From IMG/VR virus record IMGVR_UViG_2537561977_000033: a stretch of 45,340 nt of DNA; one strand, given 5' to 3'. Origin of the DNA: a virus. Lineage: Duplodnaviria; Heunggongvirae; Uroviricota; Caudoviricetes. Position numbers and translations under genes: made by a program. Positions 3,396 through 43,701 of this stretch are shown here, one piece after another. The notes beneath the pieces were generated by a model. The model did not search any database and was not told the DNA's origin. It saw only the letters and a program-made list of their open reading frames with translations. Position 1 is the first letter of the stretch, and the number at the start of each line of letters is the position of its first letter.

Positions 3396-3986
3396 ATGTC
3401 TCGAATTTTTGCTTACTGTCGGATATCAACGCTGGATCAGACCACCGAAAATCAACGCCGGGAAATCGAAAGTGCAGGTTTTAAAATCAAACCTCAGCAA
3501 ATAATCGAAGAACACATTAGCGGCTCAGCAGCAACCAGTGAGCGTCCTGGTTTTAACCGGTTGCTTGCTCGCCTGAAATGTGGTGATCAATTGATTGTGA
3601 CAAAACTGGATCGCCTTGGTTGTAATGCAATGGATATCAGGAAAACAGTGGAACAACTGACCGAAACAGGTATCAGAGTGCATTGCTTAGCATTGGGGGG
3701 CATTGACCTGACCAGTCCAACAGGAAAAATGATGATGCAAGTAATTTCAGCAGTCGCTGAATTTGAACGAGACCTTTTACTTGAACGCACTCATTCCGGG
3801 ATAGTAAGAGCCCGCGGCGCAGGGAAACGTTTTGGTCGACCACCTGTGTTAAATGAAGAACAGAAACAGGCGGTATTCGAACGAATTAAGTCAGGTGTAA
3901 GTATAAGTGCCATTGCCCGGGAATTCAAAACCTCGCGGCAAACCATTTTAAGAGCCAAAGCAAAACTTCAGACACCTGACATATAA
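3396..3986 (+). CDS. pin: Pin/Gin/Hin-family serine DNA invertase, 196 aa
   Basis: [20 protein letters not shown]... with the catalytic Ser in the YCRIS motif and a C-terminal HTH; matches Pin of E. coli cryptic prophages. Confidence 0.85.
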
Positions 3987-4082
3987 AAATAATCTCGGTG
4001 TGAGATGCTTTACGTCTTCCAAGCCCCCTTCCTTGCCGTAAATGGAAAGATACATCTAATTATAGAATTTATATGTTTTACC

Positions 4083-4658
4083 CTACGGCAGTGCTGGCCA
4101 TTCAATATCCTGTGCAGTTGACGTATCAACACGGTTCAGCAATACCCGATACTTTTTCCATGCTTCCAGCAACGAGATTTCTTCCTCCGTTGCAATTTCC
4201 AGATCTGCAGCATCCTGAAGCGGCGCAATATGCTCACTGGCTACCTGCATCAGGTTGTTTTTTGTTTCTTCCGCCTCCCGGATCCGGAACAGTTTTTCTG
4301 CTTCCGTATCCTTCACCCAGGCTGTGCCGTTCCACTTCTGAAACTCCCCTTCCGGCGATAACCAGGTAACATTTTCCGGTAACGGACCGAGTTCAGAAAT
4401 AAATAACGCGTCGCCGGAAGCCACGTCATAAACCGTTTTACCCCGATGATCTTCAACGAGATGCCACGATGACTCATCACTGTTGAAAACAGCCACGAAG
4501 CCAGCCGGAATATCTGGCGGTGCAATATCGGTACTGTTTGCTGGCAGACCTGTATGAGGCGGAATATATGCATCACCTTCACCAATAAATTCATTAGTTC
4601 CGGCCAGCAGATTATAAATTTTTATGGTCCGTGGTTGTTCACTCATTCTGAATGCCAT
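4083..4658 (-). CDS. tfa: tail fiber assembly protein, 191 aa
   Basis: Immediately downstream of the fiber gene with start/stop overlap at 4656-4660; sequence matches remembered TfaQ/lambda Tfa. Confidence 0.8.
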
Positions 4659-6313
4659 TATGCAAGCCTCACAATATAGTTAAATGCGATGTTTTTGACG
4701 GTGTTTTCCGCGTTACCAGCAGCGTTAACGGTGATGGTGTGTCCATGTGAACCAATCGCAACGGAGTGCGTATGAGCACCAATACCGACAGTATGTGCAT
4801 GTGCGCCTGCGCTTGCAGCAGTACCGGACAGCGAGTGGGTATGAGCACCATCTGATGATGTCTTCCCTGCATTACGAGTCTGGCCACTACCGCTTGTTGT
4901 GCTCATAATCCCCGCGCTTAGATTTGAAATCGCGGTATAACCATTAGGGAAAATGCTCGTGTTCGTGCCACCAAATGCACCGGAACTCTTGTGTTGGTGC
5001 GCACCGGCACTATTTGCGGTCCCGCTAATACTATGGGTATGCGCCCCGGTGTTATTCGTGGATTTGGTTCCGTAATCAAACGACGATGTGGTTTTCGTCC
5101 CCAAATCCGTACTGGATGCGCTGGCGCTGTGGGTGTGCGATTTAATGCCGTCCTGTTCCTGAGTTAATACGGCCCGACCACTGGCGGGCTTGCCCTTAAT
5201 CGTCCAGCCACGCATATCAGGGATCACGCCTGACGGATAAGCAACTGCAAGTTTCGGGTATGCAGATTTGTCAAAAGTCTGCCCCTGCATCAGGGCATAA
5301 CCAGACGGAACGGTATCTGATGGCCACGGGATTGGTGCACCGACTGGATAAAACTCTGCAGGAGGATGAGCCGAGGTGTAAAGCTGCGCCCACGGCGACC
5401 AGTTTGCGTCGGTCGTATCCCGTCGTGAACGAATAAATGCCGGAGCATGAGCACCGCTTGTACCACTCCAGCCGATGAGTAACTCACCTTCGCCAACGGC
5501 TGTCATCCCTTTCAGGTGAATGATATTTCCATACGCTGTTGGATATCCGTTGTTATACACCTCGTATAACTCAAGACCTGCTGCCCCCTGCGTATTGTCT
5601 GTCAGCGCGGTTACCCGACCTTTTGAAGCCAGATTAACTGATGATACTGCTGTTCCACCTGACGGTAACGCCCCGATCTCTGATGCCGTTGGCTTATTTC
5701 TGGAGTTATAGTCCCTTCGCCAGCCAGGTGAATAATCTGTTCCGTGATTAATATAGGTAAACTGGGCGTTAGTTGTTCCACCACCAGTGGAGGTGGTCGG
5801 TGTGGTAATGCGGATCGTCATCGCTGACTTTATCCCCATTACTTCAATGACAGCTCCGGCGAGATGAATATTACCGCAGTCAGTATCAGTAATGATTTTA
5901 TTATTGCCATAAGACCAGGACCCCTTGCACATCCAGTAGGGATGGTTAAATGCTCCCTGAGAATCCAGCCACTCGATAAACTGTGCAGTCGTCCAGTTTC
6001 CTGTTGTTGTGCTTACTGACCCACCGAAGGCACGGCAGGCACCAATATTTTTCGTAAAGGTATCTTTGCCAGGGATATCCGCACCGTTCTGATCTTTCTG
6101 CAGACGTTTCTCAGCATTGTCATTGGCTGCTTTTACTGCCTTTGGCGTTGCCGCCAGCGTTTCAGACGTGCTGTTGGTCGCGCTGCTTAACTGGATTATC
6201 CCTTTGTGCTGTCGTTGCATCCTGTGCGGTGTATTTCCCGTTAGCCAGGTCATACGCGGCCTTAACGGCTTTTGGCGTTGCCGCCTGTGACTCGGAAGTG
6301 CTGTTGGTCGCAC
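4658..6313 (-). CDS. stf: side tail fiber, C-terminal distal part; frame differs from the upstream stf part, real translation start unclear
   Basis: C-terminus ...[40 protein letters not shown] matches lambda Stf; carries the conserved box [26 protein letters not shown] near its N-terminus; first ~35 codons look like out-of-frame read-through. Confidence 0.7.
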
Positions 6314-26340: not shown

Positions 26341-26656
26341 ACTACCACTGCTGGTTCAGAGTTAAAAAAACTATGATTTTTTCATGATGTTACCGTAGTA
26401 TGTGAGTATCCATCGAATAGACACCAAGCAAAAAAGCTCCCGAAGGAGCCTTCATTTTCACTTTTTTAAATCCAACGACAGACGGCTGGCATTTAAGTAT
26501 TGTGAAATATTATCAAATGTAATCATCATTGATTTACAAAAGATACATTTTGCCCCGAAAGGATTCATGTCAGAAACATCAAAAGATGATGTTCTATACT
26601 GGGAACCATGACAACACGGGCATCTAAAGTGAATATGGTTTGTAATATTGTCTACC

Positions 26657-26869
26657 TCAAAGCGCCACTACATGAACAGCGGCAGGACCTTTAGGTCCGT
26701 TCTCAATACCAAATTCAACTTCCTGATTCTCAGTTAATGTTTTGAAATCGTTGCTCTGAATTGCTGAGAAATGGACAAACACATCTTTGCTGCCATCTTT
26801 CGGCGTGATGAAACCAAAACCTTTTTCAGGGTTAAACCATTTCACTAAACCAGTCATTTTGTTAGACAT
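26657..26869 (-). CDS. cspI: cold-shock protein (CspA family), 70 aa
   Basis: [38 protein letters not shown]... with RNP1/RNP2 motifs; matches my memory of CspI. Confidence 0.8.
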
Positions 26870-27230
26870 AATTATTACCTTTTGAAGAAATTAGCCCTTG
26901 GGCAGAATGGTCCGAAAAAAATATCAGAGAGAAAAACCAACAAGGAAATCTCAAGAGGTACAAATAATAAAATTATAACAATGACTGCTTCAGATAAATT
27001 TGTAACAAACCAGAACACCATTAACGCATGATTAACCACCCATAGCAAGGATTACTTTTGTAAAGAAAAACACAGCAATGAAAGAATAGCTTTATTTATT
27101 AATAAAACGTGTCATTCTGATTAAGACCTTTTATCTTACCCTTAAGATTTCAGGAATTTTGGCTCATGGAAGAGTCCTTTTTATTCAAATTTTACATTCC
27201 GCGATGTAAATGTTCCGATTTAATATTACC

Positions 27231-29175: not shown

Positions 29176-29537
29176 TTGATTTTATTAGTAACAAGTATTT
29201 TTATATTTTAATAATATATTTAAAGCAGATAATAAAAAACCCGCCTGAGCGGGTTTGAGATTGTGGTGCTTTTTGTGGGAGTCATCCACTTACGCACTTT
29301 GTTTTGCCATGCCAGCAGTTAGCTTCTGCTGTAAAACTATTCATGCAGCAAACCTGCACTTCACCACAATGGTTAGCATACTTTTCCTGATTAAGATTTT
29401 GCCAAATATGCTAGCCATTGTTTCATGTATTGGACCTCCTTACTTTTTATTAAAGAGATCCAATATTCACTACTCTGTCCGTATCTCTACTCAGGCATCA
29501 GCCTTCTTCGTTATCGTATACAGACGAGCGATGAATT

Positions 29538-29753
29538 TTAATCAGTAATGATGACATTTGCTGCTGCAGGACCTTTAGCACCACTCTCTATAGAGAAGGT
29601 AACCTTTTGACCTTCAAATAAGGTTCGATAATTATCATTCTGAATCGCAGAAAAATGCACAAACACATCTTTACTACCATCAACAGGAGAAATAAAGCCG
29701 AAACCTTTATCAGCGTTAAACCATTTTACTAAACCAGTCATTTTATTTGACAT
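29538..29753 (-). CDS. cspB: cold-shock protein (CspA family), 71 aa
   Basis: [51 protein letters not shown]... matches my memory of CspB. Confidence 0.8.
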
Positions 29754-30052
29754 TCTACATTCCTTAACTTGAGCCTTTCGGCATAAATGGTTTGCATAAC
29801 AGAAACGACTTCGTACTTAATTGGAGAGACTCAAAGAAGGAATAAGTGAATAACACCTGAAATGAGAACTGCTTTAGTAAACTACTTCGTATATCGTCTG
29901 TTCTTCAAACCGACGCAATCATTAACGCATAGTTGAACATATGAAGCAATGTTTATTTTAGACATCCAGCCGTCTTCAACCCCATCAAAAACTATAGCTT
30001 TCTTCAGGAACGTGTGTATAGTGCGCCAAGTTATCAGTATTAAGGAATTTTT

Positions 30053-39540: not shown

Positions 39541-39696
39541 ATGGATACTATCGATCTTGGCAACAACGAATCTCTGGTGTACGGCGTGTTTCCAAACCAG
39601 GACGGCACGTTCACCGCAATGACGTATACCAAAAGCAAAACGTTTAAAACCGAAAATGGTGCCCGTCGCTGGCTGGAAAGAAACTCAGGTGAGTGA
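39541..39696 (+). CDS. ydfA: YdfA, 51 aa
   Basis: MDTIDLGNNESLVYGVFPNQDGTFTAMTYTKSKTFKTENGARRWLERNSGE. Confidence 0.7.
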   Translation: MDTIDLGNNESLVYGVFPNQDGTFTAMTYTKSKTFKTENGARRWLERNSGE

Positions 39697-39697
39697 T

Positions 39698-40273
39698 ATG
39701 GATTTCGACACAATCATGGAAAAGGCTTACGAAGAATACTTCGAAGGCCTTGCCGAAGGCGAAGAAGCTCTCAGCTTCAGTGAGTTTAAACAGGCACTCA
39801 GAATAAGAATGTGCTCTCACAATGACGCGGAGCACAAATATGAGAAGCAAAATCAGACCGCAGGAAATTTTGTTCTGGAACCCGGAGAAACGCTTTTCAA
39901 AATTCCCGTTACGTGCCCCATTTGCGGTTTTACATCAGAAGAACTTGACGACTCCTGTAACAATCAGGAAACAACCAAGTATGTCGAAGATGATACCGAG
40001 TGCGCACGAAGAACGATTATATCCACGAGTCCAAACTCCAGGACCAATAAATCTCACTATGAGAGGGTGATTAATCCACTCCCCCAAACCAATAAAAAAG
40101 ATGCCGGAGGACAAAAAACCCAATGGAACAACGGGATATCTGTCAAAAAAAGACGTTCCATTAAAGACAAACAACGCAGCGCCAACAACTGTAAGCGCTT
40201 TATACCAGTAATCAATTTTCATGTTCTTAAGCGGATTTATTGGTGGTTGCGACATTGCTTAATGAATCCTTAA
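39698..40273 (+). CDS. 191-aa ORF covering the region K-12 splits into ydfB and ydfC; contains a CPICGF zinc-finger-like motif
   Basis: Starts MDFDTIMEKAYEEYFEGLAEGEEALSFSEFKQAL... and continues uninterrupted to 40273. Confidence 0.4.
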   Translation: MDFDTIMEKAYEEYFEGLAEGEEALSFSEFKQALRIRMCSHNDAEHKYEKQNQTAGNFVLEPGETLFKIPVTCPICGFTSEELDDSCNNQETTKYVEDDTECARRTIISTSPNSRTNKSHYERVINPLPQTNKKDAGGQKTQWNNGISVKKRRSIKDKQRSANNCKRFIPVINFHVLKRIYWWLRHCLMNP

Positions 40274-40532
40274 AACTGTGGTGATTTTAAGGATACCACC
40301 TCGCCTGACGTGGTTAAAAGCAGGCACACAACACGAAAGCGCACGGCGAAGTTCGTCTCACTGTACGGTGTCGTTAAATTTAATTCGACCGTGCGCTTCC
40401 GGTTGTGGCAACCCGCAAAATGGCGCGGCGGTAAGTATGGCGGGGTTATTCCTTCCCCGTTGAGGACACCGGGTTGTCAGGTTGACCATACGCTTAAGTG
40501 ACAACCCCGCTGCAACGCCCTCTGTTATCAAT

Positions 40533-40585
40533 TTTCTGGTGACGTTTGGCGGTATCAGTTTTACTCCGTGACTGCTCTGCCGCCC
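40533..40585 (+). ncRNA. dicF: DicF small regulatory RNA (ftsZ-targeting), ~53 nt, followed by a T-run
   Basis: TTTCTGGTGACGTTTGGCGGTATCAGTTTTACTCCGTGACTGCTCTGCCGCCC matches the DicF sequence as I remember it; between the ydfB/C region and dicB. Confidence 0.8.
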
Positions 40586-40759
40586 TTTTTAAAGTGAATT
40601 TTGTGATGCGGTGAATACGGCTAAGCGCACGCGGAACAGTTAAAACCAAAAACAGTGTTATGGGTGGATTCTCTGTATCCGACGTTAATTGTTAACTGGT
40701 TAACGTCACCTGGAGGCACCAGGCACTGCATCACAAAATTCATTGTTGAGGACGCGATA

Positions 40760-40948
40760 ATGAAAACGTTATTACCAAACGTTAATACGTCTGAAGGTTG
40801 TTTTGAAATTGGTGTCACTATCAGTAACCCTGTATTTACTGAAGATGCCATTAACAAGAGAAAACAAGAACGGGAGCTATTAAATAAAATATGCATTGTT
40901 TCAATGCTGGCTCGTTTACGTCTGATGCCAAAAGGATGTGCACAATGA
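40760..40948 (+). CDS. dicB: cell-division inhibitor DicB, 62 aa
   Basis: MKTLLPNVNTSEGCFEIGVTISNPVFTEDAINKRKQERELLNKICIVSMLARLRLMPKGCAQ. Confidence 0.85.
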   Translation: MKTLLPNVNTSEGCFEIGVTISNPVFTEDAINKRKQERELLNKICIVSMLARLRLMPKGCAQ

Positions 40949-41136
40949 ATTCAGCATTTGCGCTTGTTCTGACAGTTTTTCTTGTTTCCGGAGTGCCAGT
41001 TGATATTGCAGTCAGTGTTCACAGGACAATGCAGGAGTGTATGACTGCAGCAACCGAACAGAAAATTCCCGGTAACTGTTACCCGGTCGATAAAGTTATT
41101 CACCAGGATAATATCGAAATCCCGGCAGGTCTTTAA
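40945..41136 (+). CDS. ydfD: YdfD small lysis-associated membrane protein, 63 aa
   Basis: MNSAFALVLTVFLVSGVPVDIAVSVHRTMQECMTAATEQKIPGNCYPVDKVIHQDNIEIPAGL; start overlaps the dicB stop. Confidence 0.7.
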   Translation: MNSAFALVLTVFLVSGVPVDIAVSVHRTMQECMTAATEQKIPGNCYPVDKVIHQDNIEIPAGL

Positions 41137-41229: not shown

Positions 41230-43701
41230 ATGAGTAAAGTCTTTATTTGCGCCGCTATTCCTGACGAACTGGCAACAAGGGAAGAAGGCGCTGTGGCTGT
41301 AGCCACAGCCATTGAAGCTGGCGACGAACGCCGTGCTCGAGCAAAATTTCACTGGCAGTTCCTGGAACATTATCCGGCTGCTCAGGACTGCGCTTATAAA
41401 TTTATTGTCTGCGAGGATAAACCTGGCATACCCCGCCCTGCCCTCGATTCATGGGATGCTGAATATATGCAGGAAAACCGCTGGGATGAGGAGTCTGCTT
41501 CTTTTGTCCCGGTTGAGACTGAATCCGATCCGATGAACGTCACTTTTGACAAGCTGGCCCCTGAAGTACAGAACGCTGTCATGGTTAAGTTCGACACATG
41601 TGAAAACATCACCGTTGATATGGTTATTAGCGCACAGGAATTGTTGCAGGAAGACATGGCAACATTCGACGGACATATCGTTGAAGCGTTGATGAAAATG
41701 CCAGAAGTTAACGCCATGTATCCGGAGCTTAAGTTGCACGCCATTGGGTGGGTTAAGCATAAATGTATTCCTGGTGCTAAATGGCCCGAAATTCAGGCAG
41801 AGATGCGCATCTGGAAAAAACGTCGCGAAGGTGAACGCAAGGAAACCGGAAAATACACGTCTGTTGTTGATCTCGCCCGCGCCAGAGCCAATCAACAGTA
41901 CACTGAAAATTCAACAGGAAAAATCAGCCCGGTCATTGCTGCCATTCATCGCGAATACAAGCAGACATGGAAAACACTGGATGACGAACTGGCCTACGCT
42001 CTCTGGCCTGGTGATGTGGATGCCGGAAACATTGACGGCAGCATCCATCGCTGGGCAAAAAAAGAAGTTATCGACAACGACCGCGAAGACTGGAAGCGTA
42101 TCTCGGCATCAATGCGCAAACAGCCTGATGCCCTTCGCTACGACCGCCAAACTATTTTTGGCCTTGTCCGTGAGCGTCCGATCGACATTCACAAAGATCC
42201 CGTAGCACTGAACAAATATATCTGCGAATACCTGACGACAAAGGGCGTGTTTGAGAATGAAGAAACAGACCTGGGCACTGTTGATGTTCTCCAGTCATCA
42301 GAAACACAAACTGATGCAGTGGAAACTGAGGTATCTGATATCCCAAAAAATGAAACCGCGCCGGAAGCTGAACCATCTGTAGAGCGTGAGGGGCCGTTCT
42401 ATTTCCTCTTCGCAGATAAGGACGGAGAAAAATACGGTCGCGCAAACAAACTTTCTGGTCTGGATAAGGCACTGGCTGCTGGCGCCACTGAAATCACAAA
42501 AGAAGAATATTTTGCCCGAAAAAATGGCACATACACGGGCTTACCGCAAAATGTAGATACCGCTGAAGATTCAGAACAACCAGAGCCGATAAAAGTTACC
42601 GCTGACGAAGTAAACAAAATTATGCAGGCAGCCAATATCAGCCAGCCTGACGCCGATAAGTTGCTTGCTGCATCACGTGGTGAATTTGTTGAAGGGATTA
42701 GTGACCCGAATGATCCGAAATGGGTTAAGGGGATCCAGACCCGCGATTCTGTGAACCAGAACCAGCATGAATCGGAACGGAACTACCAAAAAGCGGAACA
42801 AAACAGTCCAAATGCGTTACAAAACGAGCCAGAAACGAAACAGCCTGAACCAGTGGCGCAACAGGAAGTGGAAAAAGCCTGCACCGCCTGCGGTCAGACC
42901 GGCGGCGGCAACTGCCCTGATTGTGGCGCGGTGATGGGCGACGCAACATACCAAGAAACATTCGATGAAGAGTATCAGGTTGAAGTTCAGGAAGATGATC
43001 CGGAGGAAATGGAAGGCGCTGAACATCCACACAAGGAGAACACTGGCGGCAATCAGCATCACAATAGCGATAATGAAACTGGCGAGACGGCAGATCACCC
43101 AATTAAGGTGAACGGTCATCACGAAATCACATCCACCAGCAGGACGTGTGACCATCTAATGATCGACCTTGAAACCATGGGAAAAAATCCTGATGCCCCG
43201 ATCATCTCAATAGGTGCAATATTTTTCGATCCGCAAACCGGAGATATGGGACCGGAATTTAGTAAGACTATCGATCTGGAAACTGCTGGCGGAGTCATTG
43301 ATCGGGACACCATTAAATGGTGGCTTAAGCAATCACGCGAAGCGCAATCTGCCATTATGACCGATGAAATCCCGTTAGATGATGCACTGTTACAATTGCG
43401 GGAATTTATCGACGAAAACTCCGGTGAATTTTTTGTTCAGGTTTGGGGAAATGGAGCCAACTTCGACAACACGATTTTGCGCCGTTCATACGAACGGCAG
43501 GGGATCCCCTGCCCGTGGCGTTACTACAACGATCGCGATGTACGCACAATCGTTGAGCTGGGGAAAGCCATAGACTTCGATGCCAGAACGGCTATTCCAT
43601 TCGAAGGTGAGCGCCATAATGCACTTGATGACGCCCGTTACCAGGCAAAATACGTTTCAGTTATCTGGCAAAAACTGATCCCGAGTCAGGCTGATTCTTA
43701 A
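41230..43701 (+). CDS. large exonuclease-like protein, 823 aa: acidic N-terminal ~600 aa of unknown function, CxxC-x6-CxxC zinc ribbon, C-terminal DEDDh (DnaQ-like) 3'-5' exonuclease domain
   Basis: C-terminal motifs in DEDDh order: DLETMG (Exo I), WGNGANFDNTIL (Exo II), HNALDDARYQAKY (Exo III); zinc ribbon CTACGQTGGGNCPDCG; sits between the dicB operon and xis-int (recombination-gene position). Confidence 0.6.
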   Translation: MSKVFICAAIPDELATREEGAVAVATAIEAGDERRARAKFHWQFLEHYPAAQDCAYKFIVCEDKPGIPRPALDSWDAEYMQENRWDEESASFVPVETESDPMNVTFDKLAPEVQNAVMVKFDTCENITVDMVISAQELLQEDMATFDGHIVEALMKMPEVNAMYPELKLHAIGWVKHKCIPGAKWPEIQAEMRIWKKRREGERKETGKYTSVVDLARARANQQYTENSTGKISPVIAAIHREYKQTWKTLDDELAYALWPGDVDAGNIDGSIHRWAKKEVIDNDREDWKRISASMRKQPDALRYDRQTIFGLVRERPIDIHKDPVALNKYICEYLTTKGVFENEETDLGTVDVLQSSETQTDAVETEVSDIPKNETAPEAEPSVEREGPFYFLFADKDGEKYGRANKLSGLDKALAAGATEITKEEYFARKNGTYTGLPQNVDTAEDSEQPEPIKVTADEVNKIMQAANISQPDADKLLAASRGEFVEGISDPNDPKWVKGIQTRDSVNQNQHESERNYQKAEQNSPNALQNEPETKQPEPVAQQEVEKACTACGQTGGGNCPDCGAVMGDATYQETFDEEYQVEVQEDDPEEMEGAEHPHKENTGGNQHHNSDNETGETADHPIKVNGHHEITSTSRTCDHLMIDLETMGKNPDAPIISIGAIFFDPQTGDMGPEFSKTIDLETAGGVIDRDTIKWWLKQSREAQSAIMTDEIPLDDALLQLREFIDENSGEFFVQVWGNGANFDNTILRRSYERQGIPCPWRYYNDRDVRTIVELGKAIDFDARTAIPFEGERHNALDDARYQAKYVSVIWQKLIPSQADS

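Follow-up and report, generated by a model that had tools for sequence, protein, structure and literature searches.

A conserved pseudoknotted RNA domain in the DicF leader of a Qin-like prophage dicBF operon

DicF, a small RNA (sRNA), and the precursor from which RNase III and RNase E process it have been on record since 1990 and were studied anew in 2023. Structured leader RNAs with a role in transcription are also known from other operons. The put RNAs of lambdoid phages, processive antiterminators that need no protein, act in cis on the zinc-binding domain of the RNA polymerase beta' subunit, suppressing termination, and the EAR element of Bacillales eps operons is a structured RNA of about 120 nt that lies inside the operon between genes and promotes terminator read-through. 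The present study is concerned with the dicF locus of IMGVR_UViG_2537561977_000033, an IMG/VR record of a Caudoviricetes virus whose 45,340 nt were analysed at full length and are called the window here, and in particular with a structured RNA domain in the leader that precedes DicF. In Escherichia coli K-12, DicF is excised from a polycistronic transcript of dicBp, with RNase III generating the 5' end of a 190-nt species and RNase E that of the 53-nt one; the 190-nt species is stable and builds up in stationary phase, and no internal promoter was found (PMC10448788). The 3' ends of DicF come from termination or, for the 72-nt form, from RNase III (PMC5069750).

The locus in the window is very probably the dicF of a Qin-like E. 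coli lambdoid prophage, together with the untranslated dicBF spacer, a processing of the K-12 type and a conserved leader core. The 53-nt DicF lies at 40533-40585 on the plus strand, is identical to K-12 dicF (b1574) and is followed by five T (40586-40590). An earlier note on the window had read 40278-40585 as DicF with a processed precursor. The DicF sequence is confirmed and the reading as a precursor is supported. This finding, as first stated, was already known: it is the published biology of the K-12 sequence (PMC10448788), to which the window shows one mismatch over the 190-nt precursor. There is good support for the core of the leader as a conserved RNA domain with covarying pairs and a pseudoknot, autonomous of DicF. 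As far as Rfam 15 and a literature search show, this autonomous and widespread domain appears undescribed.

Structure and distribution of the leader domain

The domain spans 115 nt (40402..40516, plus strand) and was defined by covariation and by a covariance model, R1. It consists of four helices and a pseudoknot. P1 pairs 40402-09 with 40509-16 and encloses the remaining elements; P2 pairs 40413-17 with 40424-28; P3 pairs 40441-45 with 40455-59 and presents a YCCUY motif in its loop; and P4 pairs 40471-79 with 40499-507 and carries an invariant 19-nt loop. The pseudoknot joins 40430-32 and 40435-40 with 40486-94, inside the P4 loop. In dot-bracket notation, 40402-40516 is written ((((((((...(((((......))))).[[[..[[[[[[(((((.........)))))...........(((((((((......]]]]]]]]]....))))))))).)))))))).

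In a MAFFT alignment of 71 distinct sequences, 95.3% of the cells pair, compared with at most 53% when the partners are slid, and 12 pairs are altered on both sides, compared with 4.9 +/- 1.6 in shuffles. A model-guided alignment, which is biased towards the model, gave 95.5% of cells paired and both-side changes in 14 of 36 pairs; its controls reached 5.3 +/- 1.5 such pairs in shuffles (none of 500 attained the observed number) and 2-6 with slid partners. As examples of these changes, GUUGUCA/UGACAAC in P4 is replaced by GUAACCA/UGGUUAC in Izhakiella, and a U-A pair of the pseudoknot becomes C-G in phage P1, while P3 is nearly free in sequence. Two segments of the domain, GGCGCGGCGGUAAGUAUGG and CAGGUUGACCAURCGC, show few variable positions across all classes, with the limit that the second was the search pattern of every scan and its invariance is partly built into the collection.

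Folding of the single sequence leaves the strand unsettled, since either strand of the 313-nt stretch gives a better fold than its shuffles (plus, z -2.7; minus, z -3.7). It is the covariation, together with the frequent G-U pairs, that points to the plus strand. R1 scores 158 bits in the window and finds one copy per related locus. Rfam 15 gave no match over 40300-40530, either at the gathering score or at E values up to 10, nor over the domain in the P1, cdtI, Citrobacter, Erwinia and Izhakiella loci. Likewise, four sequence strings typical of the domain were looked for in full-text literature and returned no paper.

The autonomy of the domain is seen in its distribution. When phage records were searched with the leader and DicF, the leader core alone was matched in phage cdtI and Stx2c-converting phages, in Salmonella phage F1055 and in P1, P7 and their relatives. 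The P1 match is placed some 50 nt downstream of Pban, the promoter under C1 control, in a region annotated as 'dicF-like', and is followed by a strong terminator and then by tRNA genes, tciABC and ban. In cdtI the match is found downstream of cI and a near-consensus promoter, with a different terminator behind. The P1 'dicF-like region' has in common with the window the same domain (R1 96 bits; P3, P4 and the pseudoknot show compensatory changes) and a terminator behind it; it differs in having no Rfam DicF, and its annotation, 68791-68892, comprises only the 3' half of the domain and the terminator. Hence, the shared part is mainly the leader domain and not DicF. Rfam also found no DicF in the cdtI, Citrobacter, Erwinia and Izhakiella loci.

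Viral contigs, when scanned with a pattern, gave 114 copies with 65 distinct core sequences, and further copies came from one genome per species, in Escherichia albertii, E. ruysiae, Shigella, Citrobacter, Trabulsiella, Serratia symbiotica, Erwinia tracheiphila and Izhakiella. The domain is present, unannotated, in 4269 of 5426 complete E. coli genomes (about 79%), with up to 8 copies per genome. It also occurs in 61 phage records and in about 510 plasmid records, the listed examples of which match P1-like phage-plasmids in size.

Each class examined has an intrinsic terminator within about 10-60 nt behind the domain, and the terminator sequence varies from class to class. The canonical DicF takes this place in 77 of the 114 viral-contig copies; the other classes are variants of DicF, a cdtI/Citrobacter type that lacks the DicF seed, a P1 type, and a long type of Erwinia, Serratia, Izhakiella and Trabulsiella with an internal Shine-Dalgarno (SD) sequence and ATG. 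In the same classes the domain is always on the sense strand of a repressor-controlled early operon. It stands after a cI-like gene in Erwinia, Izhakiella and Citrobacter, and in Citrobacter braakii only xis and int lie behind it. In phage Ayreon it follows the annotated PL promoter, and a further annotated terminator lies within the operon. No N-like protein was seen among the neighbouring open reading frames (ORFs).

Two observations concern the surroundings of particular copies. In the long terminator hairpin of Erwinia, Izhakiella, Serratia and Trabulsiella (loci L142, L143, L131, L140 and L055), an SD-like AGGAG is followed by AUG; the AGGAG-AUG in the terminator, with the complementary YCCUY in the P3 loop, hints at translational or pairing control. 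Moreover, the C4 antisense RNA and isrK, both above the Rfam threshold, adjoin each other in domain-bearing prophages of the cdtI type (L005, 40-228, minus strand) and Citrobacter (L138, 1630-1815, minus strand).

Comparison with known leader RNAs

The put RNAs of HK022 and HK639 belong, like the domain, to the early-left leader of N-less lambdoid phages and lie upstream of terminators. The domain and the put RNAs alike fold compactly, with a pseudoknot or triplex, and they have the short motifs GCGCGGCGG and ACCAURCG in common. The location typical of put, behind an early promoter and ahead of terminators in a phage that has no N, is indeed found in the P1 Pban leader, in the PL leader of cdtI and Ayreon, and in Citrobacter, where the order is PL, domain, terminator, xis and int. 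In Qin-type operons the domain stands at a far greater distance from the promoter, behind ydfA and ydfB. The order of the motifs differs, however, and put RNAs have two stems in about 70 nt, whereas here there are four helices in 115 nt and one copy per phage. With filters off, R1 finds nothing at HK022 putL or putR or at HK639 putL, and the likeness is limited to short motifs recognised by eye; the domain was thus not filed as a put RNA.

The lambda nutL/N leader also has an element in the PL leader with an RNase III duplex adjacent to it. In addition, the 5' flank of the domain outside the Qin type, GUGCUCUYUUC, resembles the boxA consensus over a motif of 6-8 nt. On the other hand, there is no boxB hairpin and no N gene, and the Qin-type flank (GUGCGCUUCC) has diverged from boxA. 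With no boxB-like hairpin, no N-like neighbour and a boxA-like motif in some classes only, the domain was not accepted as a lambda-type nut site. EAR is comparable in its position, as the Qin-type domain is also far into its operon, about 0.9 kb after the start of ydfA; it comes from another phylum, and there is no match to the Rfam EAR family.

Two further arrangements were considered. One is a riboswitch-like alternative pairing between domain and terminator stem, which is doubtful. GGCGGUA is found in the domain as well as in the 5' arm of lambdoid terminators, but the P1-type terminator (GCCCAUC...) does not have it and the pairing is not conserved in that class; no ligand is suggested by the genomic context. 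The other is a long-range pairing that would join the domain's 5' flank to a stretch beyond the terminator and enclose the whole cassette in a processing stalk like those of rRNA. It looked convincing by eye but is not supported, as RNAduplex gives z-scores from +0.4 to -1.9; only the Qin-type upstream arm pairs strongly by this measure. Altogether, the domain showed no homology to put, to nut or to any Rfam family and is filed under none of them.

A second conserved and unannotated leader element (UUUGGUUGUAACACGGCGUAUGGCACAUGCGUCGUUAGCGGUCUGG..GACGUUAAAGGGG...) was observed in cdtI (L005, about 2250-2345), Citrobacter braakii (L138, about 3915-4020) and P1 (L004, about 4770-4880). It lies just upstream of ban in P1, and in cdtI some 35 nt past PL and ahead of the domain. 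Its ACGGCG...CAUGCGUCG also occurs in stem I of putL from HK022 and HK639. The element belongs to no Rfam family and is absent from the window.

DicF, its operon and its probable processing

A covariance-model search had been proposed in the earlier note as the check on the 53-nt DicF, and it bears out the prediction with a clear match. Rfam RF00039 aligns with 40534-40585 (plus strand, model positions 1-52 of 52) at 76.7 bits, compared with a gathering score of 48 bits, and with an E value of 2.6e-15; the 53-nt span is this match plus the extra 5' U of the K-12 annotation. This is the single DicF in the window. Including the U5 tract (40586-40590) the feature occupies 40533..40590 on the plus strand, with an intrinsic terminator hairpin at 40547-40585 that a simple terminator scan overlooks because its loop is longer than 8 nt. 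Besides the RF00039 score, membership in the family is seen in the target-pairing region and terminator, which are identical to K-12, and in the position upstream of dicB in an operon of the dicBF type (HTH (helix-turn-helix) repressor, ydfA, truncated ydfB, dicF, dicB, ydfD and exonuclease). Mature DicF resembles CpxQ and ArcZ, sRNAs released by RNase E from operons or 3' untranslated regions, in being the terminator-proximal piece of a longer transcript; unlike them, it sits between genes and not at the 3' end of an mRNA, and it has RNase III sites on both sides. A part of the 5' pairing region of DicF (40538-40546, GGUGACGUU) is perfectly complementary over 9 nt to a site in the dicB leader (40702-40710), which may mean nothing, with about 0.6 such matches expected by chance in this stretch.

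A 571-nt query (40200-40770) is 100% identical to many E. coli chromosomes, for instance that of O26:H11 strain 11368. On this identical DNA, RefSeq gives the gene order Cro/CI pair, HTH repressor, ydfA, truncated ydfB, an unannotated gap, dicB, ydfD, exonuclease and xis, and this order is that of the dicBF early-left (PL-type) operon of a Qin-like lambdoid prophage. The first gene of the operon is ydfA (39541..39696, plus strand), which is annotated by RefSeq, identical to K-12 and assigned to PHROG 751; after it comes the truncated ydfB (about 39698-39799, from RefSeq). Behind the spacer lie dicB (40760..40948, plus strand), encoding a cell-division inhibitor of 62 amino acids and supported by RefSeq, ORF and PHROG data, ydfD (40945-41136) and the exonuclease gene (41230-43701).

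The window shares with the Qin dicBF operon of K-12 the identical DicF and the order ydfA, ydfB, spacer, dicF, dicB and ydfD. The two align near-identically over ydfA and into the 5' part of ydfB. They diverge between about 39800 and about 40330, are partially homologous from there on and become near-identical again from 40385. There are 5 mismatches over 40385-40760, of which 1 (40417) is within the 190-nt DicF precursor. The main difference is that the 3' end of ydfB and ydfC are replaced in the window by low-GC DNA (39800..40277, G+C 0.416) that carries an antisense ORF. This ORF (39935-40255, minus strand) encodes 106 amino acids of membrane-like character, lies antisense inside the dicBF operon, has no PHROG match and bears the label 'hypothetical' in some RefSeq genomes only.

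Phage records with dicF now exist, namely Tritos, HannyBb, mEp460_ev081 and Evi. The isolated phage Tritos has the complete operon, running from cI through ydfABC, the domain, dicF, dicB, ydfD and exonuclease to xis and int. A paper of 2016 had reported DicF and DicB homologues to be absent from phage databases. Elsewhere in the window, Rfam matched IS009 and two leaders of the cspA thermoregulator type, which belong to cold-shock paralogues (4117-4315, 26630-27014 and 29522-29914, all on the minus strand); these matches are consistent with a Qin-like prophage.

If the K-12 steps are carried over to this copy, transcription would start at the DicA-repressed promoter upstream of ydfA and go on through the spacer. 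RNase III would then cleave a duplex of about 20 bp (40327-46 with 40389-407), leaving the stable 190-nt RNA, and a cut by RNase E at 40532/33 would release the 53-nt, Hfq-binding DicF, a repressor of ftsZ and other mRNAs. The 3' end would be formed by the DicF terminator or, on read-through transcripts reaching dicB, by an RNase III cut in a second duplex (40595-613 with 40724-742).

The first of these duplexes, duplex A, is formed by a 5' arm at 40327..40346, a presumed RNase III substrate recognised from inverted repeats and the minimum free energy (MFE) fold, and a 3' arm at 40389..40407 that overlaps the 5' strand of domain helix P1. It is interrupted, and its energy of -36.8 kcal/mol (z -4.1) is close to that of the K-12 version (-36.3, z -3.5); compared with K-12, the 5' arm is altered in sequence with the pairing retained. 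A 190-nt species ending at 40585-40590 would start at 40396-40401, inside the 3' arm, which is where the RNase III cut is placed. Duplex B, in the dicF-dicB spacer, consists of a 5' arm at 40595..40613, half of an inverted repeat of 19 nt with 95% complementarity, and a 3' arm at 40724..40742, just upstream of the ribosome-binding site of dicB; its fold has z -4.98. The published RNase III-made end of the 72-nt DicF maps to 40604, in the 5' arm of duplex B. Both probable RNase III positions, 40396-401 and 40604, would thus fall within strong duplexes. For RNase E, the linker between domain and DicF (40517..40532) is predicted to form a hairpin in the MFE fold, in which 40523-30 pairs with DicF nt 5-12 (40537-44) and the 40532/40533 site lies in a 6-nt AUUUUC loop. 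The dicF-dicB spacer also gives a sub-threshold Rfam STnc100 match (40583-40792, 34.6 versus 47 bits), the one neighbour of the domain at permissive E values.

Two features limit the transfer of the K-12 processing to the window. The low-GC insert with its antisense ORF interrupts the operon in place of ydfC, so that transcription through to dicF is assumed. Furthermore, 40417 is A in the window and G in K-12 and most homologues, which breaks the innermost pair of P2 (A-C for G-C). Natural deletion variants were also observed (L015, L063 and L133 (Shigella flexneri)), in which the RNase III hairpin and the 5' strand of domain P1 are missing. The deletion junction is a short repeat, ACRCGAAA(U)GGCGC, carried by the 5' arm of duplex A as well as by the start of P2 (window 40330-40345 and 40412-40427), and window 40318-40352 resembles a partial duplicate of the start of the domain.

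Concerning the DNA between 40278 and DicF, the earlier note described it as GC-rich, with several inverted repeats and only weak, spurious ORFs, all of them on the plus strand. The G+C content of 40278-40530 is indeed higher than that of the window, but only mildly (53.8% compared with 49.6%). The inverted repeats are real, and five were listed: 40334-46 with 40389-401 (13 nt, 92% complementary), 40327-37 with 40397-407, 40471-79 with 40499-507 (9 nt, perfect), 40440-54 with 40496-510, and 40266-75 with 40285-94. The left boundary at 40278 proved arbitrary, as 40278-40326 belongs to the stretch that diverges from K-12 (about 39800-40330). The ORFs are not confined to the plus strand either: apart from two plus-strand ORFs with GTG starts (40278-40463 and 40310-40501), the minus strand has 40358-40531 and 40494-40649.

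That 40278-40463, 40310-40501 or 40358-40531 encode small proteins is vanishingly unlikely. ORFs of 57-63 amino acids are present, and hypothetical proteins are annotated there in some phage records; nevertheless, each ORF is frameshifted by indels in 33-34 of 70 distinct homologues and has in-frame stops in up to 10 more. The starts are GTG or TTG, the plus-strand ORFs begin in sequence that diverges from K-12, substitutions follow base-pair covariation and RefSeq has no coding sequence here. The frameshifts and stops rule these ORFs out as genes, as the earlier note had expected of those on the plus strand, and the upstream region is non-coding. It is also very improbable that dicF has its own promoter in the 250 nt upstream, with the leader as a primary 5' untranslated region. 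PMC10448788 refers to an earlier description of a promoter upstream of dicB, but primer extension in K-12 and the rnc dependence of the 190-nt 5' end speak against it (PMC10448788), and a promoter scan found no sigma-70-like site on the plus strand of 40278-40533.

Possible roles of the domain

Regarding function, the first choice, made tentatively and by analogy with HK022 put or Bacillus EAR, is that the domain would be a cis-acting RNA that lets polymerase pass the terminator behind it. Read-through in cis is favoured by the constant place before the first terminator, the essential genes and terminators downstream, the lack of N and the precedents of put and EAR. Among what these operons have behind the domain are xis and int, ban, and one more annotated terminator. 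A wider proposal, somewhat more doubtful, is that the domain may represent an undescribed and widespread class of phage early-leader RNA, present in P1-like phage-plasmids and N-less lambdoid phages of Enterobacterales, which would act in cis, with no phage protein devoted to it, as a processive antiterminator beside put and EAR, both at the terminator next to it and at later ones; in that case DicF would be one among several interchangeable 'terminator sRNAs'.

Several points weigh against read-through in cis. There is a single copy per phage and none on the PR side, as the R1 search found no second copy in the window or in 100 related loci, and the same model finds no put RNA in HK022 or HK639. 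In leaders of the cdtI type, a put-like hairpin element, ACGGCG...CAUGCGUCG, lies between PL and the domain and could do the read-through job. In K-12, terminated and read-through transcripts are both seen (PMC10448788).

The domain could instead be a separate, stable RNA acting in trans, of about 137 nt after both cuts, or made of domain and terminator in the P1 and cdtI types, that binds a conserved host factor or host mRNAs, for example through the pyrimidine-rich loop of P3. In P1, the order of promoter, domain and terminator is the typical layout of an sRNA gene, with the domain starting about 25 nt after the annotated Pban start; the invariance of the loops across unrelated phage types suggests a host partner, and YCCUY is kept in the P3 loop. 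Such an RNA has not been reported, the published Northern blots had DicF probes only (PMC10448788), and the domain is always within an early operon leader, on the sense strand and ahead of long operons, never a free-standing gene, which makes a role in trans rather unlikely. A role as a scaffold for processing and stability only, offering the duplex to RNase III and the loop to RNase E and protecting the 190-nt intermediate, is less likely again. The domain is flanked by the probable RNase III and RNase E sites, the 190-nt species of K-12 is stable and accumulates in stationary phase, and the overlap of duplex A with the 5' strand of P1 means that cleavage could free the domain to fold. Nevertheless, RNase III needs a duplex and RNase E an AU-rich single strand, which leaves the invariant loops and the covarying pseudoknot, kept from P1 to Erwinia prophages, unexplained. 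P1 and the lambdoid phages share little else and yet keep both, and the domain persists in loci that have an RNA other than DicF behind it.

RefSeq does not annotate the 5' body of the 190-nt precursor, and Rfam lacks it; it is found in P1-like phage-plasmids and in several other genera. If read-through control by the domain is true, it would explain the expression of xis, int, dicB and ban behind strong terminators in N-less lambdoid phages and in the P1 ban operon. It would also explain how the choice between DicF, made by termination, and DicB, made by read-through, is set.

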